In this document: piece by piece, positions 3,043-56,035 of the stretch
Layout: each line of letters opens with the position of its first letter
Numbering within the stretch: position 1 is the first letter of the stretch
Assembly: GCA_027624135.1 (NCBI GenBank)
Contig: JAQBXL010000001.1
Location: forward strand, 4,950-68,949
DNA length: 64,000 nucleotides
Origin: Chloroflexota bacterium
GTDB lineage: Bacteria > Chloroflexota > Dehalococcoidia > Lucifugimonadales > UBA3495
Direction of reading: 5' to 3'
Notes under the pieces: model-generated
What the model saw: the letters and a program-made list of their open reading frames with translations, nothing else
What the model was told of the DNA's origin: nothing
Database searches by the model: none
Program-made: the position numbers and the translations under genes

Positions 3043-3198
3043 GGTGACACTCGAATTCGGTGAATCCTTCCTTGTAAATTATAGGCTAAGGTATGTTAAC
3101 TTGGAACCATTGGATACTACGTTGAGAATGGCACATCCGGCTCTATAGCTTGTGCGTATAGTTAGTCGGCGCCAGTATGTGTAGATGGAGGGGTGAAC

Positions 3199-4599
3199 AT
3201 GCCCAAGGCAAAGCGTCCCCAGACCATTGGAGCTCTCCGCAAAAGCAATTACGAAGTTCTTCCCGTGCGCGAGGAAATGCGCAAGAACCTGATTGCTAAG
3301 ATTCGAGCCGAGGAAATCGTCTTCCCAGGTATTGTCGGATTTGAAAATACCGTCATTCCCCAGATTGAAAATGCCATCCTGGCCGGGCAGGACATCATCC
3401 TGTTGGGCGAACGGGGCCAGGCCAAATCCCGCATCATTCGGAGCATGACCAACCTGTTGGATGAGGCAATACCCAAGATCGCCGAGTGCGAGATCAACGA
3501 CGACCCCTACAAGCCCATCTGCCGAGTTTGCCGCGACAAAGTGGCGGAGTTGGGCGATAAGACGCCGCTGGAATGGATAACCCGGGAAGAACGTTACTCC
3601 GAAAAGCTGGCCACTCCCGATATCTCGATCGCCGACCTCATCGGCGAGATTGACCCCATCAAAGTCGCCGAGGGTCACTATCTGTCCGACGAATTGGCGA
3701 TCCACTACGGACTGGTGCCTCGCACCAACCGTGGCATCTTTTGCATCAACGAGTTGCCCGACTTGGCCGAGCGGATTCAGGTCGGGTTGTTCAACTTGAT
3801 GGAAGAACGAGACGTGCAGATCAAGGGCTACCGCGTGCAGTTGCCCTTGGACGTTTTTGTAGTGTCAACGGCGAACCCCGAAGACTACACCAACCGAGGC
3901 CGCATCGTGACTCCGCTCAAGGACCGGTACGGCTCCCAGATACACACCCACTATCCCCTGAATCCCAAAGATGAGATCGTCATCATGGAACAGGAGCGAG
4001 CTAGATTTCCCGAAGAAGAAAAGATGGTTATCCCCGACTACATGAAGGAGATCGTAGCGGAGATCACCACCCAAGCCCGCCTGAGCAGCGAGATCAACCA
4101 ACGCTCCGGAGTCAGCGTCCGGGTGTCCATCGCCAACTTCGAGACCATGCTTGGCAATGCCGTTCGCCGGGCCATCCGAAGCGGCGAAGAATGGACTTGC
4201 CCCAGAGTCAGCGATCTGTCTTTCATCGTCGCGTCGTTTGCTGGGAAGATCGAGCTTGAGACCTTCGAAGAAGGCCGCGAGTCGCGGGTGACCGACGATC
4301 TGACCCGGCGCGCTGTGTTGCGGATCTTCAGTGGTTACTTTGACGTAGATGAACTGGAGCCGGTGGTAACCGCTTTCGACATGGGGAACCGGGCCGAGAC
4401 CGGCAGCGACCTGTCTGCCGCCGGATACCCGGACCTGGTCAAGAAGATCGACGGCCTGGCCCCGGCGGTCAAGAAACTGACCACGGACAACCGGCCCGAG
4501 GTCATCGCATCGGCGGTGGAATTCATCTTGGAAGGCTTACACCTGAGCCGAAAGCTGAACTGCGACCGCTCCGGCGAGGCCGCAGTCTACAGGCGGTAG
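3199..4599 (+). CDS. AAA+ ATPase, Mg-chelatase ChlI/BchI-like
   Basis: Walker A LLGERGQAKS, Walker B GIFCINELPD, and the VVSTANPEDYTNRGRIVTPLKDRYG sensor region. GGAGGGG lies 5 nt before ATG 3199 (the track starts at GTG 3193). Confidence 0.75.
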   Translation: MPKAKRPQTIGALRKSNYEVLPVREEMRKNLIAKIRAEEIVFPGIVGFENTVIPQIENAILAGQDIILLGERGQAKSRIIRSMTNLLDEAIPKIAECEINDDPYKPICRVCRDKVAELGDKTPLEWITREERYSEKLATPDISIADLIGEIDPIKVAEGHYLSDELAIHYGLVPRTNRGIFCINELPDLAERIQVGLFNLMEERDVQIKGYRVQLPLDVFVVSTANPEDYTNRGRIVTPLKDRYGSQIHTHYPLNPKDEIVIMEQERARFPEEEKMVIPDYMKEIVAEITTQARLSSEINQRSGVSVRVSIANFETMLGNAVRRAIRSGEEWTCPRVSDLSFIVASFAGKIELETFEEGRESRVTDDLTRRAVLRIFSGYFDVDELEPVVTAFDMGNRAETGSDLSAAGYPDLVKKIDGLAPAVKKLTTDNRPEVIASAVEFILEGLHLSRKLNCDRSGEAAVYRR

Positions 4600-4684
4600 T
4601 TCCCGGTCTGCCCAAGCGCATTTCCTAATTAAGAACCACCTGACGGTTCTGCCTTGTCTCCCTCGGCGTCACCAGCGTATAATT

Positions 4685-4698
4685 AGAACATTAGTTCC
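4685..4698. promoter_or_regulatory. LexA-type (Cheo) SOS box AGAACATTAGTTCC overlapping a TATAAT -10 box (4678-4683)
   Basis: GAAC(4686-4689)-ATTA-GTTC(4694-4697), 40 nt upstream of ATG 4737. A nearly identical 14-mer occurs again at 54313-54326. Confidence 0.55.
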
Positions 4699-4736: not shown

Positions 4737-5642
4737 ATGGCAGGCGCTGACGTACAAGAGATTCACTGCAAGACTCTGCTCAATAAGATTGATGTCCCCC
4801 GGTTCCCGTTCCGGTGGACACTGAATCCGTACCGGGGTTGCCGCCATGCCTGCACCTATTGCTATGCCCGGCCGACCCACGAGTTCTGGGGTTTGGACTC
4901 GGGCCGGGACTTTGAGACCAGGGTCTTCGCCAAGATAAACGCTCCCGAAGTGCTCCGGAAAGAACTGCAACGCCCCAGTTGGCGGCGGGAGTCGATCGCC
5001 ATTGGCACCGCTTCAGACCCCTACGAACCGGCGGAAGCCGAATACGAGATAACCAGGCGCATCCTCCACGTGCTGCGCGATTTCCAGAACCCTGCGTCCA
5101 TCACCACCAAGGGTGTCTTGGTGCGCCGCGACGCCGACATCTTGGCGGAACTGAGCCAGGTTGCCGATGTTCACGTCAACTTCAGCATCGGGACCATAAA
5201 CGAGAAGGTGTGGCGCCTGATGGAGCCGGGGACTCCACGCCCGGAAGCTCGGCTGGAGACCATGCAGTTCTTGGTGGAGAGCGGCGTCTCCGCAGGGGTG
5301 ATGATGGCCCCGTTGCTGCCCGGCATCACCGACGACGAAGCGAATATCCAAGCGGTGGTCGAAGCAGCCCACATTCACAAGGCTCAGTACCTGGGGGCCA
5401 ATGTGTTGTTCTTGAAGCCGGGCTCAAAAGAGTGGTTCATGCCCATGCTGCGGGAAGCCTATCCCCACCTGACGCCCGGCTACAACCGCCTATACCGTAA
5501 GACCTACGCGCCGGGAGAGTACACCAAGAGCGTTCTAGATACCGTGGACCGGGTTCGGCGGCAATGGAACCTGCCAGACCGGGCAACGGTTCAAGCGAAT
5601 ATGCAGCAACGAGGCCAGTTGGCGTTGGCTTTCACTGCCTAG
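4737..5642 (+). CDS. radical SAM protein, SplB-like (DNA repair photolyase, COG1533-type) family
   Basis: NPYRGCRHACTYCYA radical SAM cluster motif, ASDPYEP, and family-typical length of 301 aa. RBS GGGAGGG. Confidence 0.8.
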   Translation: MAGADVQEIHCKTLLNKIDVPRFPFRWTLNPYRGCRHACTYCYARPTHEFWGLDSGRDFETRVFAKINAPEVLRKELQRPSWRRESIAIGTASDPYEPAEAEYEITRRILHVLRDFQNPASITTKGVLVRRDADILAELSQVADVHVNFSIGTINEKVWRLMEPGTPRPEARLETMQFLVESGVSAGVMMAPLLPGITDDEANIQAVVEAAHIHKAQYLGANVLFLKPGSKEWFMPMLREAYPHLTPGYNRLYRKTYAPGEYTKSVLDTVDRVRRQWNLPDRATVQANMQQRGQLALAFTA

Positions 5643-7095: not shown

Positions 7096-8400
7096 ATGGT
7101 CCGATATAACCCTTTCTTTTGGTTGCTAAAGGCAGCAATCTATCTTGGCGAACGTTGGTTCCAGATGAACGGAGGCGTGATCCAGTCAGTCTCTGACGGT
7201 CGCCGCGACCAGCGATACTGGCTAGCAACCCGCTACTTCAGTTGGCGCAAGTTCTGGAACTTTATTCGAGTGGAACTTCAGCTCCGGTTCGCCCGGAGAA
7301 TCATCTGGGGGTCCGCCTATGAATGGGAGATTGACACAACCAACATCTGCCAACTGAAATGCCCGCTCTGTCATACCGGCAAGGGGACCATCCACCGTGA
7401 TCAGGGCGTGATGGACTTTGACCTCTTCAAGAGCACGGTCGACCAGATCAAGAACTCGTGCATGTGGCTTACGCTCTATAGCTGGGGCGAGCCCTTCTTG
7501 AACCGGCGCATCCACGAATATATCGAATACGCCCACAAGCAGAAGCTCGCGACAATCATAAGCTCGAATCTGAACAAGCCGCTTACCCCTGAGATCGCCG
7601 AGCAGGTAATCCGGTCGGGACTTGACGTCATGATCGTCTCCCTGGATGGGGTGAGTCAGGAAGTCTATGAGGTCTACCGTGTCGGTGGACATCTAGACCG
7701 GGTGCTCGCTAATCTGCGGCTTCTGGATGCGAAAAAACGGGAGTTGGGCTCGAAGACCCCTTATATCGAGTGGCAATTCATCGTCATGCGCCAGAATGAG
7801 CACCAGATCGAAGAGGCCCGAAGCTTGGCCGTAAGCCTGGGAGTTGACTCGCTGGTCCTCAAGAAAGTGGACTTTCCCCACGGCGAGAACGATCCTGATG
7901 AGGCCGAAAAGTGGCTGCCGCGTCAGCACCCCGAGTACCTGCGCGCCGATCCGTTCTACAAGCCCTATCAGGAGGACGGTGGGGTGTGCTGGAGATTGTG
8001 GCGTACCGCGGTGATCAACTGGGACGGCGGATTTGCGCCGTGCTGCTACCTTACGGACAAGACCCAGGATTTCGGCGACGTTGGTGTATCATCTGTAAAG
8101 TCTATCTGGAACGGAGAGGATTACACCGCCGCCCGGGGGTTGTTCAAGAAAGACTTCGTTCCCCAAAAATGGGTTGGGTGCCTGGACTGCAGCGTTTATT
8201 TGGGAAGCAGCGCCGCCCGCAGTCGTGGTCCGGTGTACCTCCACCCCGAACCGCTTCTGCTTCGGGTTAACGGATTTAAGTCAGCCAACAGCAATGGCGT
8301 GAAGCACGACGATGAAATCCCACAGATCGAAATGGCGTCCGTCTCGCCATTAAAACAAGAGGAATCCCTGGACGAGGCGAAATCAGAAGAGCCAGTTTAG
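7096..8400 (+). CDS. radical SAM/SPASM domain protein
   Basis: IDTTNICQLKCPLCHTG (Cx3Cx2C), SWGEPFLN, SLDG. C-terminal auxiliary-cluster region CWRLWRTAVINWDGGFAPCCY...CLDC. Has an ~80 aa aromatic/basic N-terminal extension. Confidence 0.85.
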   Translation: MVRYNPFFWLLKAAIYLGERWFQMNGGVIQSVSDGRRDQRYWLATRYFSWRKFWNFIRVELQLRFARRIIWGSAYEWEIDTTNICQLKCPLCHTGKGTIHRDQGVMDFDLFKSTVDQIKNSCMWLTLYSWGEPFLNRRIHEYIEYAHKQKLATIISSNLNKPLTPEIAEQVIRSGLDVMIVSLDGVSQEVYEVYRVGGHLDRVLANLRLLDAKKRELGSKTPYIEWQFIVMRQNEHQIEEARSLAVSLGVDSLVLKKVDFPHGENDPDEAEKWLPRQHPEYLRADPFYKPYQEDGGVCWRLWRTAVINWDGGFAPCCYLTDKTQDFGDVGVSSVKSIWNGEDYTAARGLFKKDFVPQKWVGCLDCSVYLGSSAARSRGPVYLHPEPLLLRVNGFKSANSNGVKHDDEIPQIEMASVSPLKQEESLDEAKSEEPV

Positions 8401-8582: not shown

Positions 8583-9404
8583 ATGGCCACTATTAGAAAT
8601 ACGCTGTCTGGATTACCCCAGTCCCGATTCATTTTCCCTTATGTAGGGGAGATAGGGCTCCTTGTGGGCAGCTATTTCGCCTATATGCATACCCGCGCCC
8701 TGGTCTTCTCAGATTTCCAAGGGACGGCTCTGGCCAACGCCGCACGGGTCATAGAGTTTGAAAAAAACTGGGGATTCTTCTGGGAACCGGGTTGGCAATC
8801 CTGGGCCATAAACAGCGCAAAGTCGTTGGTGATCTTCTTCAACTGGGCCTATATTGTCACTTTCTGGCCCATCATACTCACCAGCGCAGTGATTCTGTAC
8901 TTCACCAACCGCAACCGGTACAAGTATTACCGGAACGTCGTCCTTCTCAGCTTCGTGATCGCGCTGTTGGGTTTCATGCTCTTCCCTCTGGCCCCGCCAA
9001 GGATGATCGCCGAGCACTTCGTAGACACGATCAAGGCATTCGGGCCTTCGGGATATGCCAGCCGTGAGTTTACCAATTACTACAATGCTTACGCCGCCAT
9101 GCCCAGCCTGCACTTTAGCTGGACGGTGCTGTTCGGCATCATGTTCCTGCGGTCGCATAATAAACTGATCAAGGTCTTTGGTGTCATCTACCCGGCCATG
9201 ACCCTATTCGCAATCACCATCACCGGTAATCACTACATCATGGATGCCGTCGGCGGCGGACTGCTGATTCTAGCCTCGTTCCTGACCATGGAACTGGGGT
9301 TCCGCCGACGTTTCTTCCTGCCGGTCATCCTATCCAAAGCACACAACGCGTTCAGGCGGACAGATACTAAACCGGTCGGCGGGGAGCCATTAACAGCCGA
9401 TTGA
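8583..9404 (+). CDS. PAP2_3-type (IPC/sphingomyelin-synthase-like) integral membrane phosphotransferase/phosphatase, paralog 1
   Basis: Multi-TM protein. [14 protein letters not shown] and ITGNHYIMDAVGG (PAP2 C2/C3-like SxH and HxxxD motifs). Confidence 0.75.
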   Translation: MATIRNTLSGLPQSRFIFPYVGEIGLLVGSYFAYMHTRALVFSDFQGTALANAARVIEFEKNWGFFWEPGWQSWAINSAKSLVIFFNWAYIVTFWPIILTSAVILYFTNRNRYKYYRNVVLLSFVIALLGFMLFPLAPPRMIAEHFVDTIKAFGPSGYASREFTNYYNAYAAMPSLHFSWTVLFGIMFLRSHNKLIKVFGVIYPAMTLFAITITGNHYIMDAVGGGLLILASFLTMELGFRRRFFLPVILSKAHNAFRRTDTKPVGGEPLTAD

Positions 9405-11252: not shown

Positions 11253-12602
11253 TCACTTCTCGTTGGTGTTGCTACGATCTTTTCCCCACTCGGGGTGCCG
11301 GAAGGTTGGCAGGTTGAACCGGTCGATGGGCCGCTCTGCGGCTATTAGTGGCTCAGAATCAGGTTCTTCGGCAACGGGTGGCCGGTACGCGCGTCCCAGC
11401 GTGCGGTTGGGGCTGAACGAACTCAGATTCTGGGCCAGCGATTCCAGGCTGTTCAGATTGTGCACCGGCAGAAAGTCGTCAACATAAGGCAGCGCCGCCT
11501 TCATCCCCTGGGTTAGAGGCTGGTAGGTGGGGGAGCCAAGCAGGGGGTTCAGCCAGATGAGCCGGTGGCAGCTGCGCTGCAACCTGGAAGTCTCCTGAGC
11601 CAACAATTCAGGGTCGCCCCGGTCCCAGCCGTCGGAGATTATCAAGACCACGGTCTGGCCCTTCAGCACCCGCCGCAGCCATTGGTAGTTGAAGGTCTTT
11701 ATCGCCTCGCCTATGCGCGTGCCGCCAGCCCAATCGGGCACCGATCTTGAGACTTCATCGATCGATTGGTCGATGCTGCGGTATCTCAGGTTCCGGGTGA
11801 TGCGGGTTAGACGGGTGGCAAACAGGAAGGCCTCCAGTTGTTGGTTGCCGCCCGCGCCTGCGATTGTGTGGATGAACTGTAGGAGCATCCGGGTGTAGCG
11901 CTCCATGGAACCACTCACGTCGCAGATGAGCACCAGTGAGCGAGGCTTGTCCTTGGGAGACCGGAAGGACAGATCTATAAATTCGCCGCCGTGTTTCAGG
12001 CTCCGCCGCATGGTTCGGCGCAGGTCAAGTTGCCCAGACTGGCCCGGAGCCAACCGCCGGGTGCGGCGCCGACCTAGGTCCCATTCCAAGTTGGCCATCA
12101 TCAGCCGTGCTTCGGCCATCTCCAGGGAAGTGAACTCGGAGAAATCTTTTTGGCGGAACACTTCCACTGCGCTGTAGGTGCGGCTCAGGTCTACGTTCTG
12201 GACCGATTCATCGTTCGGGTCGCCTTCGATTGATCCGGCGCCCTCGGGTTCATCATCCCGGCCGGTCCCTATCTGGGGCTTGCGAAATCGTCGTTGCTCT
12301 CCCATGGAACGCAGGTCCATGGTGGTGGTGCGGTCGGAAGGTTTGCGCCAGAACACTTGGAATGCTTCATCGAAGATGGGCAGGTCCTGTTTGCGGTGGA
12401 CCAATATGCTGCGGGCGGCCTGGAAGAATTCCCCGCGCCGTCCGATGGACACGTGTTCGGTGGCACGAACCAGATCCAGCATATTGCCCGATCCAACTTC
12501 CAGCCCCACGCGGCGTAGCATCTCGCCGAAGAGCGTCAGGCTATGGAGTATATGGCCATCTGGGCCGGCATCGTTGGGAATGATCGGAATCGGGCCTGGC
12601 AT
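11253..12602 (-). CDS. VWA domain protein, CoxE-like
   Basis: MIDAS DxSxS in [10 protein letters not shown], and the CoxE-type C-terminal half (LIWLNPLLG). Confidence 0.8.
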
Positions 12603-12604
12603 CT

Positions 12605-13558
12605 CTATCCGCGGCGGCGGCCTCCCCGGCGGGGTCCTCGGTTCTTGGAGCGCTCCAACATGGCCCGGACTGGCTCACCCTTCACGGACTCGATATCGTC
12701 CTGGTACTTGAGCATCAGGCCCAATGTATCATCGATCACCGAGGGGTCCAGTTCTGTTTGGTTCAACACCAAGAGAGCGGACAACCAGTCGAGGGTTTCC
12801 GAGATGCCGGGAATCTTGAATAGCTCGGTCTCCCGCATCTCCTGGATGAACGCGGTTACTTGCTCGGCCAGCTTCCTTGGGGCGTCCGGTATCCTTGCGG
12901 AGATTATCTGGAGCTCTTTCTGGTAGTCGGGGTAATCGACCCAGTGGTAGAGGCAGCGGCGCTTCAGTGCGTCATGTATCTCCCTAGTACGGTTGGAGGT
13001 GATGATGACGATGGGCGGGTGGACTGCCTTAAAAGTGCCCAACTCCGGGATGGTTATCTGGTAGTCACTAAGAAGCTCCAGTAGGAACCCCTCGAATTCC
13101 TCATCGGCACGGTCAAGCTCGTCGATCAGGAGCACCGGCGGTCGCTCCTGAGCTTCATCGATGGCCTGAAGGAGCGGCCGCTTGATCAGGAAATTCTCGC
13201 TGAAAAGGTCGGCGCTGGCAGAATCCCGGTCAACGTCGCCTGCCGCCTCCATGAGACGGATCTCCAGCACCTGACGGGCGTGGTTCCACTCGTAGACCGC
13301 CTGATTGACGTCCAAGCCCTCGTAACACTGCAAACGAATCAACTTGGTGCCCAGCCCAGCGGCTAAGGCACGGGCAATCTCAGTCTTGCCAACCCCGGCC
13401 TCCCCTTCCAGAAACAAGGGGCGTTGCAGTTTCATCGCCAGGAATATCGGAACAGCTAACGCCCGGTCGGTGATGTAGACCTGGTCGCGCAGCAGGTTCT
13501 GGACGTCTTCTATGGACTCTGGGGCTTTGTACTCAGCAGTGGTCAATATGGTCATCAT
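12605..13558 (-). CDS. MoxR/CoxD-like AAA+ ATPase
   Basis: Walker A GEAGVGKT, Walker B LLIDELDRA, ITSNRT. Its stop lies 2 nt from the VWA start. Confidence 0.9.
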   Translation of the reverse strand: MMTILTTAEYKAPESIEDVQNLLRDQVYITDRALAVPIFLAMKLQRPLFLEGEAGVGKTEIARALAAGLGTKLIRLQCYEGLDVNQAVYEWNHARQVLEIRLMEAAGDVDRDSASADLFSENFLIKRPLLQAIDEAQERPPVLLIDELDRADEEFEGFLLELLSDYQITIPELGTFKAVHPPIVIITSNRTREIHDALKRRCLYHWVDYPDYQKELQIISARIPDAPRKLAEQVTAFIQEMRETELFKIPGISETLDWLSALLVLNQTELDPSVIDDTLGLMLKYQDDIESVKGEPVRAMLERSKNRGPRRGGRRRG

Positions 13559-29158: not shown

Positions 29159-29559
29159 GGTTACCGTCATTCCAGCGAAAGCTGGAATCCAGTGGTCGGT
29201 ACGCATTCTGTATTTCGGTTTGGACGCGGCCTTCCTGGGTTCCGGCCTTCGCCGGAATGACGAAGAGAGCCTGGTCCACTGCCGTTGGGAGATACGGCGA
29301 GAAAGTACGGAAAGCTGCCCGGTCCCATCCCCATAATAAAACAAAGCCCCTTAGATAAGGTTACCGTCATTCCAGCGAAAACTGGAATCCAGTGGTCGGT
29401 GCGCATTCTGTATTTCGGTTTCGGCGCGGCCTTCCTGGGTTTCGGCCTTCGCCGGAATGACGAAGAGAGCCTGGTCCACTGCCGTTGGGAAATACGGCGA
29501 GGAAGTATGGAAAGCTGCCAGGTCCCATCCCCATAATAAAACAAAGCCCCCTGGATAAG
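29159..29559. repeat. two tandem copies of a 200-bp structured element (GTCATTCCAGCG...CGCCGGAATGAC type)
   Basis: Copy 1 is 29159-29358 and copy 2 is 29359-29559, differing at only scattered positions. Each has a local hairpin TTCCAGC-GAAA-GCTGGAA and long-range inverted ends GTCATTCC.../...GGAATGAC. Confidence 0.9.
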
Positions 29560-53349: not shown

Positions 53350-54177
53350 CTAGCGGGCGTGGTACTTTGGCGGGCGCTTTTCCACGAACGACTGGCTGGC
53401 CTCTTTGAAATCCTCAGTCAGGTGCAGCTTCAGCGGCAGCATCTGCATGTCGGCTTCGGCTCCGGTCTGGACCCACTGACGCCGCGTCAACTTCACCGCC
53501 GCGCGGGTCGCCAGGGGCGGCGACTTCAGGACCTTCTCCGCCAGTTCCTCCGCGGCGCTCAGGTGCTCTCCCGCTGGAACCAGCCGGTTGATCAGCCCCA
53601 ACCGGTATAACTCGGCGGCGGTGACGTGCTCCCCGGTTATCACCATCTCGCTGGCTATCTTGGAGGGCATGAAGGCGTTAACCTTGGCCCAGATCCTACC
53701 CCCTGGCAGCCCTCTTCTGGTCTCGGTGATGCCGAACCTGGCATCCTCTGAGGCGACAATCATGTCGGATTCGGCGGCAATGACTATGCCCGCGCCCAGA
53801 GCGTACCCGTGGACAGCGGCGATGACGGGTTTCCAGTTGATGGCGCGGCCCATGTAACCCTCGGGGTTGGGGCCCCGCTCCCTACGGGCGCTCTGCTCCG
53901 GCGTCATGGCCACGAACCGCTGTTTGATGTCCGCCCCCGCGCAGAAACTTCGCCCCGCGCCGTGAACGATGGCCACCCAGGCTTCATCGTCCAGGTCGAA
54001 CTGCAGCAGCGCCGAGTGCAGGTCTTCTTCGAACTGGTCGTTTACCGCATTCAGCGCCTGGGGCCGGTTGAACATGATGTAGGCGGTCTTTCCCAACCGT
54101 TTGTAGATCATCGTCTCGTACTCGGTGATCACCTGGGGTTCATCAGGCTGGGATTGTTTGGTGTCTGCTTCGGGCAC
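53350..54177 (-). CDS. enoyl-CoA hydratase/isomerase (crotonase) family protein
   Basis: FNRPQALNA, GAGRSFCAGADI, AAVHGYALGAG oxyanion-hole motifs. Confidence 0.9.
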   Translation of the reverse strand: MPEADTKQSQPDEPQVITEYETMIYKRLGKTAYIMFNRPQALNAVNDQFEEDLHSALLQFDLDDEAWVAIVHGAGRSFCAGADIKQRFVAMTPEQSARRERGPNPEGYMGRAINWKPVIAAVHGYALGAGIVIAAESDMIVASEDARFGITETRRGLPGGRIWAKVNAFMPSKIASEMVITGEHVTAAELYRLGLINRLVPAGEHLSAAEELAEKVLKSPPLATRAAVKLTRRQWVQTGAEADMQMLPLKLHLTEDFKEASQSFVEKRPPKYHAR

Positions 54178-54247
54178 TGCTACCTCCGGGATCTATGCGT
54201 AGTGTTCTGATGTTAGGCGTAACTTACACGCGAGATTGACTAAAGTA

Positions 54248-54325
54248 GAAAATTTGTTCTGAAAAGTATTGACATGTTCCGAACGGGCGTTCTAAACTAA
54301 TCAAGCAATATTAGAACATTAGTTT
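54248..54325. promoter_or_regulatory. promoter with three LexA-type (GAAC-N4-GTTC-like) boxes
   Basis: GAAAATTTGTTC 54248-54259. TTGACA 54269-54274. CGAACGGGCGTTCT with core 54281-54292, between -35 and -10. TAAACT 54293-54298. GAACATTAGTTT 54314-54325. Confidence 0.55.
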
Positions 54326-54337
54326 CGGAGTATGGAA

Positions 54338-54673
54338 ATGACCACCTTTGATTGGCCCATCACCTCTAGTCCCGTTCTCGACGCCGTGCCCGAATTTTAC
54401 CACTACGAAGACACGGGTTGTGAGGTCTCCGACTCCTGCCTCAATTGCCCGCTGCCCCAGTGCAAATACGACGACCCGGCCTGGTTCCAGCGCAATCGGC
54501 GATTGGCCCGCGACTTCAAGATCTGGTCGGCCATGCAGCATGACGACCTGACAGTCGAGGAGGCTGCGGAGCGGTTCTCGGTCACTGTTCGCACCATCTT
54601 CCGGATCATGCGCCGCTGCCGAGACGCCGCCATGATCGACCAGGAAGAGCTGGCGGTCTTCGCCGCGGATTAG
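54338..54673 (+). CDS. small Cys4 plus helix-turn-helix protein, putative SOS-controlled regulator
   Basis: CEVSDSCLNCPLPQC (C-x5-C-x2-C-x4-C) followed by LTVEEAAERFSVTVRTIFRIMRR (HTH). GGAG lies 7 nt before ATG 54338 (the track start is 54332). Confidence 0.6.
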   Translation: MTTFDWPITSSPVLDAVPEFYHYEDTGCEVSDSCLNCPLPQCKYDDPAWFQRNRRLARDFKIWSAMQHDDLTVEEAAERFSVTVRTIFRIMRRCRDAAMIDQEELAVFAAD

Positions 54674-54705
54674 GGATGAGGAGTGAACACTTTACAGCAT
54701 CCACA

Positions 54706-54735
54706 CCGTCATTCCGGCGGACGCCGGAATGACGG
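54706..54735. repeat. REP-like perfect palindrome CCGTCATTCCGGCG-ga-CGCCGGAATGACGG
   Basis: 14-bp arms, with the same GTCATTCC/GGAATGAC core as the 200-bp tandem element at 29159-29559. Lies between convergent genes. Confidence 0.7.
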
Positions 54736-54803
54736 TTAAGCCTGAAGCACGGTTGGATGGAGCTTGAATTGAACTCCCCGCAACAATCAAAAACCCGCAA
54801 ACT

Positions 54804-54833
54804 AAAAAGGGTCCGCTTGAGGCGGGCCCTTTG
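54804..54833. terminator. bidirectional intrinsic terminator
   Basis: AAAAA-GGGTCCGC-ttgag-GCGGGCCC-TTT. On the minus strand the stem is followed by TTTTT, 27 nt after the acyl-CoA dehydrogenase stop. Confidence 0.6.
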
Positions 54834-54859
54834 CAGATGCTGAAGTGAATGCGGGAATA

Positions 54860-56035
54860 TTAGCCGCGAGGCAGGCCCAAGCCGCGTCCGGCAATGATGT
54901 TGCGTTGGATCTCCGACGTCCCGGCGGCAATGGTGCCGGCAAAGGCGTTCATCCAGTGTTCCTGGACCCGGCCTTTGAGCGGCGCCCACTTCTCCTGCCG
55001 GTTCAACGTCCCGAACATGCCCAAGATGTCCAGAGAAGCCTCGGTCACCCGCTGCACTGTCTCGCTGCCAAATACCTTGCTCATGGACGCTTCTTTGGTG
55101 GGTATAAGGTCTTGAGACTGCATGTAGGCCACGTTGTAGGCCATCAACCGGGCCACTTCGCAGTCTATGTACCGGTCGGCCATCAACGTGCGCACCCAGG
55201 GAATCTCCATGATGGGCTGCCCGTTGCGCTTGGTCTCAGTGGCAAACTCACGCGTGTCGTCAAGTAATCTGCGCGCCGAGGCGGAGTAGTCGATGCCGGA
55301 GCGCTCGAAGTCCAAGAGGGTTACCGCCACGTACCAGCCTCGGTCCTCTTCACCGACCACGTTGGCCCTGGGCACTCGGACGTTGTCGAAGGTCACTTGG
55401 TTGAACTCATGTCCGCCCGCCATGTTGATGATCGGGCGAACCGACACCCCTGGGGTTTTCATGTCCACCAGAACAAAGCTGATGCCCCGGTGCTTTGGCG
55501 CATCTGGGTCAGTGCGGGTCAGCAACATGATCCAATCGGCGCGGTGGGCCATGGTGGTCCATACCTTGGCGCCGTTGATCACCAGGTCGTCGCCGTCCCG
55601 AATCGCACGGGTACTGAGGGAGGCCAGGTCGGAGCCCGACTCAGGCTCGCTATAGCCCTGACACCACTGCACTTCGCCTTTGGCCACAGGCGTCAGGTGG
55701 GTCTTCTTCTGCTCCTCGGTACCGTGAATCATCAGAGTCGGACCCAACATTCGGACGCCGAAGATGTCCCGTCCGGGCGCGCGCATGTAGGCGATCTCTT
55801 CGTTGTAGATAGCCGACTTCACCGGGGAGGCGTTCTGGCCGCCGTACTCCTCCGGCCAGTGCATGGTGAGCCAGCCTTTCTCCGCCATCTTTTGACGAAT
55901 GACCTGGTTCAAGTCCCAGTCGTCTTCTTCGGGGTAGCGACCGGCGCCCTCCCAGGTATCGGGAAGCTCGGCCTTCATGAATGCCCTCAGTTCTCCCCGA
56001 AACGCTTCGTCCTCGGCAGTGAACTTGAACTCCAC
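54860..56035 (-). CDS. acyl-CoA dehydrogenase
   Basis: WPEEYGG, CQGYSEPESGSD, TLLDFER, and C-terminal IAAGTSEIQRNIIA. Confidence 0.9.
   Translation of the reverse strand: MEFKFTAEDEAFRGELRAFMKAELPDTWEGAGRYPEEDDWDLNQVIRQKMAEKGWLTMHWPEEYGGQNASPVKSAIYNEEIAYMRAPGRDIFGVRMLGPTLMIHGTEEQKKTHLTPVAKGEVQWCQGYSEPESGSDLASLSTRAIRDGDDLVINGAKVWTTMAHRADWIMLLTRTDPDAPKHRGISFVLVDMKTPGVSVRPIINMAGGHEFNQVTFDNVRVPRANVVGEEDRGWYVAVTLLDFERSGIDYSASARRLLDDTREFATETKRNGQPIMEIPWVRTLMADRYIDCEVARLMAYNVAYMQSQDLIPTKEASMSKVFGSETVQRVTEASLDILGMFGTLNRQEKWAPLKGRVQEHWMNAFAGTIAAGTSEIQRNIIAGRGLGLPRG

Follow-up and report, generated by a model that had tools for sequence, protein, structure and literature searches.

The DNA analysed here is a stretch of 64,000 nt from a Chloroflexota bacterium (contig JAQBXL010000001.1, positions 4,950 to 68,949), called the window below. 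We read positions 54248–54330 of the window as a LexA-repressed promoter of the sigma-70 type, which lies in front of a gene for a protein of 111 aa with four clustered cysteines (Cys4) and a helix-turn-helix (HTH). The product is read as a domesticated phage-type regulator that would serve as a damage-induced second-tier factor. Based on the sequence comparisons described here, we put the probability of this reading at about 0.8. We infer the second-tier role from the modelled fold and the genomic context of the product. The roles of 'secondary regulator' and 'checkpoint factor', which an earlier prediction made from the window alone (the original prediction) had named, are speculation. The promoter region and the gene comprise the following features.

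54248–54259, unstranded: operator O1, GAAAATTTGTTC; one mismatch to GAAC-N4-GTTC; approximately -57 to -46 from the predicted transcription start
54269–54274, plus strand: -35 hexamer TTGACA, from the consensus promoter scan
54281–54292, unstranded: operator O2, GAACGGGCGTTC, extended CCGAACGGGCGTTCTA; exact match; approximately -24 to -13
54293–54298, plus strand: -10 hexamer TAAACT, from the promoter scan; predicted transcription start near 54305
54314–54325, unstranded: operator O3, GAACATTAGTTT, extended ATTAGAACATTAGTTTCG; one mismatch; in the 5' leader, approximately +10 to +21
54327–54330, plus strand: Shine-Dalgarno sequence GGAG, 7 nt before ATG 54338; kept in orthologues
54338–54673, plus strand: coding sequence of the Cys4 plus HTH protein, 111 aa, monocistronic; stop codon at 54671–54673

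The consensus scan of 54150–54900 returned exactly one sigma-70-like site, the predicted promoter TTGACA-18-TAAACT with 10/12 matches. O2 occupies the spacer between the two hexamers, and its extended right arm GTTCT covers the first base of the -10 hexamer. Downstream of the -10 hexamer, O3 directly abuts the Shine-Dalgarno sequence. The box in front of the ribosome-binding site corresponds to the 14-mer AGAACATTAGTTTC at 54313–54326. O1 lies upstream of the -35 hexamer, within the interval shared with a divergent crotonase gene. The boxes, TTGACA, TAAACT and the ATG were all found where the original prediction had placed them. The centre-to-centre spacing of O1, O2 and O3 is 33 bp, or about three helical turns, so the three operators would lie on one face of the DNA. 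No RNA families were found in 54100–54900 (Rfam).

The window contains seven exact GAAC-N4-GTTC sites, compared with 1.15 expected, and none of 100 shuffles reached seven. It could be argued that three short palindromes have come together by chance in this AT-rich intergenic region. Isolated sites with no more than one mismatch are frequent (36 in the window vs. 25 expected), and five of the seven exact sites are probably not operators. However, three-site clusters within 78 bp are expected only ~0.01 times per 64 kb (an estimate from the background rate of sites with at most one mismatch). Moreover, position, spacing and arms are kept in about 75 species while the spacers drift. The comparison of orthologues refutes a chance cluster, which we regard as exceedingly improbable.

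Only two of the seven exact sites, those at 4686 and 54281, are both strong and intergenic; the others are coding or low-scoring. The sites at 9291, 20653, 20733 and 28475 were rejected as operators due to their location in coding sequence or their low scores. The remaining exact site, GAACGTTGGTTC at 7150–7161, stands before the possible in-frame starts ATG 7165 and GTG 7177 (after GGAGG) of a radical SAM/SPASM maturase-like gene (7096–8400). It was rejected as a strong operator, as it scored 7.2 bits with the clade matrix and may sit inside the open reading frame (ORF). It may be a chance occurrence or a weak site.

Conservation of the operators across orthologous loci

Orthologous loci were collected with one genome per species. 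The search gave 181 matching stretches, of which the best 80 were used, all from SAR202, Dehalococcoidia or Chloroflexota metagenome-assembled genomes (MAGs). On this basis, the window was assigned to a SAR202-type Dehalococcoidia bacterium. Boxes were counted in the 220 bp upstream of the gene at a threshold of at least 8 bits; 78 loci were usable, and the background was 0.026 per 220 bp.

At least two boxes were found in 73 of the 78 loci. The original prediction had made its case depend on the boxes being conserved upstream of orthologues, and they are. In 70 of these 73 loci, TTGAC was located exactly 6 nt ahead of the central GAAC. The recurring layout is TTGACA, N6 and AGAAC-N4-GTTCTA, which runs into the -10 hexamer and is followed by a second box, AGAACAnnnGTTT, abutting the ribosome-binding site. 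The -10 region reads GTTCTATACT, GTTCTAAACT or GTTCTATAAT (TATACT, TAAACT or TATAAT). An O2 box, exact or with one mismatch, was present at the equivalent position in nearly all orthologues, with a differing N4 spacer. The O3 box of the orthologues has the form ATTAGAACAnnnGTTT(t)GGAG and lies 30–36 bp (mode 33) downstream of O2.

The upstream box was variable. In close relatives, O1 reads TAGAAAATnTGTTC and lies 33 bp upstream of O2; in more distant relatives, it reads TTAGAACAnnnGTnC and lies 44 bp upstream, or it is absent. At least three boxes were counted in 46 of the 78 loci. Hence, the triple operator of the original prediction stands for the window, where all three boxes were found, and does not extend to all orthologues.

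The arm positions of the boxes are 83–98% conserved, and at the two central spacer positions no base exceeds 34%. The family-wide operator consensus is tAGAAC-R-N-N-Y-GTTCTa. The arms are conserved and the spacers free, upstream of orthologues in about 75 species; this phylogenetic footprint therefore supports the boxes as functional operators. At a threshold of at least 14 bits, 188 sites were found in 1.45 Mb, and 181 of them were in promoters of the Cys4-HTH gene (177, plus 4 in loci L043 and L076).

LexA and other candidate binders

LexA is by far the best candidate for the binder of these boxes, and we infer this with strong confidence for four reasons: the Cheo-type consensus, what is reported and listed for the LexA of Dehalococcoides, the presence of a box at a radical SAM gene of a LexA target family, and the motif switch of that family in other lineages.

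The consensus tAGAAC-R-N-N-Y-GTTCTa matches the Cheo box, which we take to be CGAACRNRYGTTYC. Purified Dehalococcoides LexA reportedly binds GAAC-N4-GTTC. The original prediction had called the boxes Cheo or Gram-positive-type, and this agrees with the consensus and with the exact match of O2 and the single mismatches of O1 and O3. The LexA of D. mccartyi is listed as a characterised reference via CollecTF under accession WP_012882749.1 (PMC8565304, Table S2). GAACN4GTTC is the SOS box of B. subtilis, and GAAC-N4-GTTT is the operator of lexA, recA and ruvC in C. difficile, where binding of LexA to the recA operator was measured by surface plasmon resonance (PMC4234289).

The second strong site of the window lies at the radical SAM gene.

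4685–4698, unstranded: second operator, AGAACATTAGTTCC; abuts TATAAT, 38 nt upstream of the radical SAM gene
4737–5642, plus strand: radical SAM gene, Rv2578c/PA0069 family; matches NCBIfam rSAM_Rv2578c with E=2.7e-94, under the equivalog cut-off

The box at 4685–4698 and the 14-mer at 54313–54326 differ in a single base, as had been predicted, and the 15-mer ATTAGAACATTAGTT is common to the two sites. The radical SAM gene was compared across 80 metagenomic loci, of which ~50 were SAR202-like (63–96% identity) and 22 were distant and from other lineages (41–45% identity). In nearly all of the ~50 SAR202-like orthologues, TAGAAC-N4-GTTyTA was found 39–68 nt upstream; it was degenerate in L127 and not assessable in L126. 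In 10 of the 22 distant homologues (L144, L146, L149–L153, L158, L159 and L161), an AT-rich CTGT-N8-ACAG was found at most 300 nt upstream, with a background of 0.026 per 270 bp (examples are CTGTATATATAAACAG and CTGTACATATATACAG). CTGT-N8-ACAG is the E. coli-type LexA box. Rv2578c was found to be a LexA target by chromatin immunoprecipitation sequencing in M. tuberculosis (PMC3381160), and in P. aeruginosa PA0069 belongs to a set of 15 SOS genes. In phyla whose LexA motifs differ, the Rv2578c/PA0069 family seems to come under LexA repeatedly. It tracks the LexA motif of its host, which argues that LexA of the SAR202 lineage uses GAAC-N4-GTTC.

Between the end of an AAA-type gene (3193–4599) and the box at 4685–4698, an inverted repeat AGAACC-N7-GGTTCT was observed at 4632–4650. 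It has GAAC/GTTC arms with a 9-base spacer and could be a terminator hairpin or an operator of odd spacing.

Several results weigh against the LexA reading. By tblastn with E. coli and B. subtilis queries, no lexA, recA, uvrA, uvrB or dinB was found in the window or in ~180 loci, and no ruvB in the SAR202 loci. Beyond the Cys4-HTH and radical SAM promoters, strong sites were very few in ~2.3 Mb of flanking DNA. The extra strong sites of the position-weight scan precede non-SOS genes or are intragenic; the genes behind them are DUF1501, a type ISP restriction enzyme, a HAD hydrolase, ArgJ and an integrase. In three AT-rich SAR202-type lineages (L046, L073 and L078), the gene is retained at 60–65% identity and its promoter has no boxes; SOS control may have been lost or replaced there. 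Finally, in two phage-like contigs (L168 and L180, see below), the box co-occurs with operons that hold a family member, and an autoregulator would give the same picture.

The upstream regions of L046, L073 and L078 share a conserved stretch, ...GTATTGATATTTATTGCA...AGACATAAC.GGCATAGTA.... A literature search for LexA in SAR202, Dehalococcoidia and Chloroflexota gave nothing relevant and no paper describing the Cys4-HTH gene.

The boxes might instead be bound by the Cys4-HTH protein, which would then repress its own gene (negative autoregulation), or by some other regulator that recognises palindromes. In the case of autoregulation, the Cys4-HTH protein would head a small regulon defined by GAAC-N4-GTTC, with the radical SAM gene as a further member. 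Indeed, ~96% of the strong sites in 1.45 Mb are at the gene's own promoter, the box-bearing promoter in L168 and L180 drives an operon ending in a family member, and no lexA promoter is among the loci covered. However, experiments in Gram-positive bacteria (and reportedly in Dehalococcoides) have defined this very motif as the LexA operator. The switch of the radical SAM family to CTGT-N8-ACAG elsewhere means that this family follows LexA and not the Cys4-HTH protein. Moreover, ten mobile-element or viral members have no box at their own promoters, and mostly none in their loci, and the HTH appears to be of the sigma-region-4 or resolvase type, not of the winged-helix dimer type known for this palindrome. 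We consider a binder other than LexA quite unlikely, and LexA remains our candidate in what follows.

The Cys4-HTH protein and its family

ATG 54338 was taken as the start codon; an alternative ATG at 54332 comes a single base behind the Shine-Dalgarno sequence. Most of the closest database homologues (81–95% identical) have 111 aa, in agreement with ATG 54338. In total, 374 database homologues were found, which removes a doubt of the original prediction, namely that the small ORF might have none. The matches listed are 66–95% identical and 108–133 aa long; they come from Dehalococcoidia MAGs and are annotated as 'hypothetical' or 'transposase family protein', with no functional name. The nucleotide differences to orthologues are mostly at third codon positions (e.g. 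2/1/15 and 12/9/40 by position). As the substitutions are concentrated there, the ORF is by this measure a real gene under purifying selection. Two parts of the protein were distinguished.

54419–54463, plus strand: putative metal-binding knuckle C28-x5-C34-x2-C37-x4-C42, GCEVSDSCLNCPLPQC; invariant cysteines
54545–54631, plus strand: HTH, residues ~70–98, LTVEEAAERFSVTVRTIFRIMRRCR; from the model and weak Pfam matches

The original prediction had described a Cys4 cluster with a C-terminal HTH, and this is the order found, with C-x5-C-x2-C-x4-C at residues 28–42 followed by the HTH. In 65 sequences with identity down to 35%, G27, C28, C34, C37, C42 and R85 are invariant, and the family core reads D-x-G-C-E-V-x3-C-L-x-C-P-L-P-x-C-K-Y-D-D-P. 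A further cysteine, C94 (codon 54617–54619, within RRCR of the recognition helix), is conserved in the SAR202 subfamily only and is absent from the wider family. It is possibly a redox-sensitive or an extra metal-binding position.

With a diverse alignment, AlphaFold2 gave a mean predicted local distance difference test score (pLDDT) of 88.4, with values >90 for roughly residues 21–100, including the knuckle. With close homologues only, the pLDDT was 62.6. The model shows a loop-rich Cys4 knuckle, a long basic helix (47–69) and the HTH helices 73–79 and 84–110. The Cys4 site may hold zinc or an iron-sulfur cluster.

No above-threshold family was found for the 111-aa protein in Pfam, NCBIfam, PHROG or the PDB. 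The best Pfam matches were HTH_Tnp_ISL3 (E=1.6e-4, 21.5 bits vs. a cut-off of 27.4), Mor (E=1e-3, 19.3 bits vs. 24.9, HTH only) and Sigma70_r4 (E=6e-3, 16.6 bits vs. 24.1). In NCBIfam, an IS256 Zn-binding variant (E=7e-4) reached 18.9 of 150 bits and transpos_ISL3 15.4 of 180. The PHROG matches to 'late transcriptional activator' (E=4e-4 to 7e-3) were also sub-threshold. The sequence search of the PDB gave weak matches to the HTH only (Tn3 resolvase, Mor (1rr7, E=0.12) and SpoIIID). Foldseek against the PDB found region 4 of SigW, SigE, SigD and SigC, as well as DosR and DeoR, with a local probability of at most 0.97, E of at least 0.38 and query TM-scores of 0.3–0.45. Against the PDB and BFVD together, it matched the HTH only (sigma region 4, DeoR/SorC and LuxR/DosR) with E of at least 0.06. 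The statement of the original prediction that the product is no known SOS gene was borne out by the searches of Pfam, NCBIfam, PDB sequences and folds.

Three family assignments were rejected. The resemblance to Wbl proteins that had been pointed out is not homology, as Whib (PF02467) is not among the 15 Pfam matches at E≤10 and the cysteine spacing differs. A fragment of an ISL3 transposase was dismissed on account of the sub-cut-off scores and the length of only 111 aa. The Mor/C activators were set aside as well, the match being below the cut-off and confined to the HTH.

An exhaustive profile search gave a wider family of 2,337 clusters at E≤1e-3 and 665 at E≤1e-10, and those listed are 55–179 aa long. 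A search with the distant member P0254 gave two matches only, and a cluster look-up of ten distant members returned no names.

The family is largely borne by phages or mobile elements, the distant members being ~40–55% identical. Viral contigs (IMG/VR) were searched by a degenerate DNA pattern, and six of them contain family members. In L164, the member precedes an O-like HTH protein and an IstB-like loader. It lies in a block with an integrase, a PAPS reductase and a D5-type primase in L165, with an integrase, ThyX and RecT in L167, and with RusA, an AAA_25 helicase and ParB in L178 and L179. In L163 and L166, its surroundings are series of small ORFs, together with genes for conjugation or a resolvase. 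In L168 and L180, it directly follows the large terminase subunit (PHROG terminase families, 3e-9), and in L180 a portal gene comes next. The large terminases of L168 and L180 are 52% identical to each other.

The distant phage or mobile copies have no box at their own start. In L168 and L180, which are Chloroflexota-like contigs with a guanine plus cytosine (GC) content of 65–68%, TTGAC-N5-AGAAC-N4-GTTCTAttct heads phage-like operons (L168, 569–584; L180, 993–1008, 3218–3233 and 9647–9662). As the same promoter layout heads other operons here, the operator belongs to a regulon and not to one promoter. This suggests that the packaging-module operons of L168 and L180 are under direct LexA control.

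A second chromosomal subfamily, 39% identical, was found in Chloroflexota of 70–73% GC beside housekeeping genes such as parAB and greA. It has one exact GAACAGATGTTC box just upstream, which is the top-scoring site in the locus. In L081, a gene for an SOS response-associated peptidase (SRAP; 12196–12927) lies 2 kb downstream of a boxed Cys4-HTH gene of this high-GC subfamily; no strong box was seen at the promoter of the SRAP gene itself.

As the family is largely phage- or mobile-element-borne, the most likely origin of the SAR202 gene changes from what could be seen in the window alone: it looks like a domesticated phage-type regulator. An alternative interpretation is that the gene is the remnant of a decaying prophage, i.e. 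a leftover lytic-switch or late regulator with a LexA promoter and no host function, and that its boxes reflect the former use of host LexA by the phage. Both the phage- or mobile-element-borne nature of most of the family and the LexA-boxed phage-like operons in related contigs are in line with this. However, SAR202 bacteria carry the gene singly on the chromosome, in a conserved gene order and with host metabolic genes within 200 bp on either side. It is divergent from an enoyl-CoA hydratase (crotonase) gene and convergent with an acyl-CoA dehydrogenase gene, and these neighbours recur across species at 60–95% identity (acyl-CoA dehydrogenase family in 72 and divergent crotonase in 55 of ~79 loci). 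Purifying selection on the gene is strong, and its promoter has kept its architecture down to single bases; a remnant would not be preserved like this. We hold the remnant to be improbable and prefer the domesticated regulator.

The divergent enoyl-CoA hydratase gene (53350–54177, minus strand) starts 71 bp from O1, and its promoter must share the interval. LexA at O1 could also affect this gene. Downstream of the Cys4-HTH gene, one further element was found.

54706–54735, unstranded: perfect palindrome with 14-bp arms, CCGTCATTCCGGCG GA CGCCGGAATGACGG; 33 nt after the stop codon

The half-site of this palindrome has seven matches in the window, compared with 0.58 expected. Besides 54706–54735, they are located at 1144–1155, 29166–29177, 29250–29261, 29366–29377 and 29450–29461, and those near 29.2–29.5 kb form two more inverted pairs ~200 bp apart. 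The palindrome at 54706–54735 is likely a transcript-end hairpin or a dispersed element resembling repetitive extragenic palindromes.

Proposed mechanism, significance and comparison with known systems

In undamaged cells, LexA dimers would occupy the operators. LexA bound at O2 would exclude RNA polymerase, and LexA bound at O3, next to the ribosome-binding site, would block its escape. O1 probably adds cooperative stability, as the arrangement on one face suggests cooperative occupancy. Occupancy of O1–O3 would keep the gene very tightly off. After DNA damage, self-cleavage of LexA stimulated by RecA would free the promoter. As LexA would have to leave several sites, the release would probably be a late event in the response. 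The product would then act as a second-tier DNA-binding factor.

A further-reaching version is that SAR202 and related Chloroflexota have fixed a phage-derived, metal-sensing DNA-binding protein as their most tightly LexA-repressed SOS gene, which would serve as a late second-tier switch. We put this forward tentatively and on balance doubt it. Its metal-sensing would possibly be iron-sulfur-based and redox-responsive. The switch might turn on host or phage-derived genes, such as those for growth arrest or defective-phage or packaging operons like those of L168 and L180. Alternatively, by analogy with gp7 of GIL01, it might act on LexA itself.

The operator type and multi-site repression by LexA are already known; the controlled gene family is unannotated. 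The comparisons above make the Cys4-HTH gene a strong candidate for an SOS regulon member that is new and under tight control, and its product a probable regulator. Little is known of SOS regulons beyond the model phyla, and SAR202 is hard to culture. The analysis provides a precise operator model for this clade and evidence for a Gram-positive-type LexA motif operating there. It also points to a conserved, unannotated family of >2,300 sequence clusters with no Pfam entry, whose chromosomal members are under putative direct damage control, and to a probable case of a phage-type regulator captured by a host SOS network. If true, the late switch would represent an undescribed family of SOS transcription factors in a highly abundant deep-ocean clade. 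As B. subtilis LexA recognises the same box, a model host can be used to assay the promoter. The size of 111 aa suits metal analysis and in vitro mapping of DNA targets.

The best library matches, the ISL3 and IS256-variant transposases, combine an N-terminal zinc finger with an HTH, and their scores are below the cut-offs. This weak similarity is why some records are annotated as 'transposase family protein'. In contrast to these transposases, the gene has no DDE catalytic domain and no inverted repeats, and it is single-copy in conserved synteny. The likeness to Mor and C of phage Mu consists of a weak HTH similarity and a similar size. As with phage regulators of the Mor/C type, relatives of the protein are found where the replication and packaging modules meet, or at a cro-like location. 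However, the Mor/C families have no Cys4 knuckle, and all scores are below their cut-offs.

The WhiB-like (Wbl) proteins are likewise small (~100 aa), with four cysteines and a C-terminal part that contacts DNA. Both families occur in host chromosomes and phages of one phylum each. The Wbl spacing, which we take to be C-xn-C-x2-C-x5-C, differs from the C-x5-C-x2-C-x4-C within 15 residues found here. Wbl proteins have an AT-hook-like tail, whereas the present protein has a full C-terminal HTH, and there is no sequence relationship. As for regulation, LexA binds directly at whiB2 in M. tuberculosis (PMC3381160), as it would at the Cys4-HTH gene here.

In terms of logic, the closest parallel is with LexA-controlled switch proteins of phages. 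Examples are Tum of coliphage 186, the Gifsy antirepressors and gp7 of GIL01 with its promoter P1. The shared logic is that of a small phage-type protein whose expression or action depends directly on host LexA boxes (PMC4551915, PMC3121763). They differ from the present case in that there is no sequence similarity and that the gene here is a fixed chromosomal gene outside any prophage, with no partner repressor identified.

At the level of the operator, the putative LexA boxes share with Cheo-box LexA operators the core palindrome and the purine/pyrimidine preference at the outer spacer positions. The flanks are tAGAAC...GTTCTa here, not CGAAC...GTTCG. The variant arm GTTT of the C. difficile lexA, recA and ruvC operators recurs in O3. 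As in the Cheo-box promoters of Gram-positive bacteria and Dehalococcoides, the operators here overlap the core promoter. Promoters with several boxes are also known from B. subtilis (lexA/yneA). Four potential boxes are present in the lexA/Rv2719c region of M. tuberculosis (PMC3381160). In contrast to these systems, the controlled gene is neither lexA nor a repair gene, nor does it encode a known division inhibitor. A further difference is the architecture, in which O2 runs with its right arm into the -10 hexamer, and this fixed layout, TTGACA-N6-GAAC, is retained throughout a whole class.

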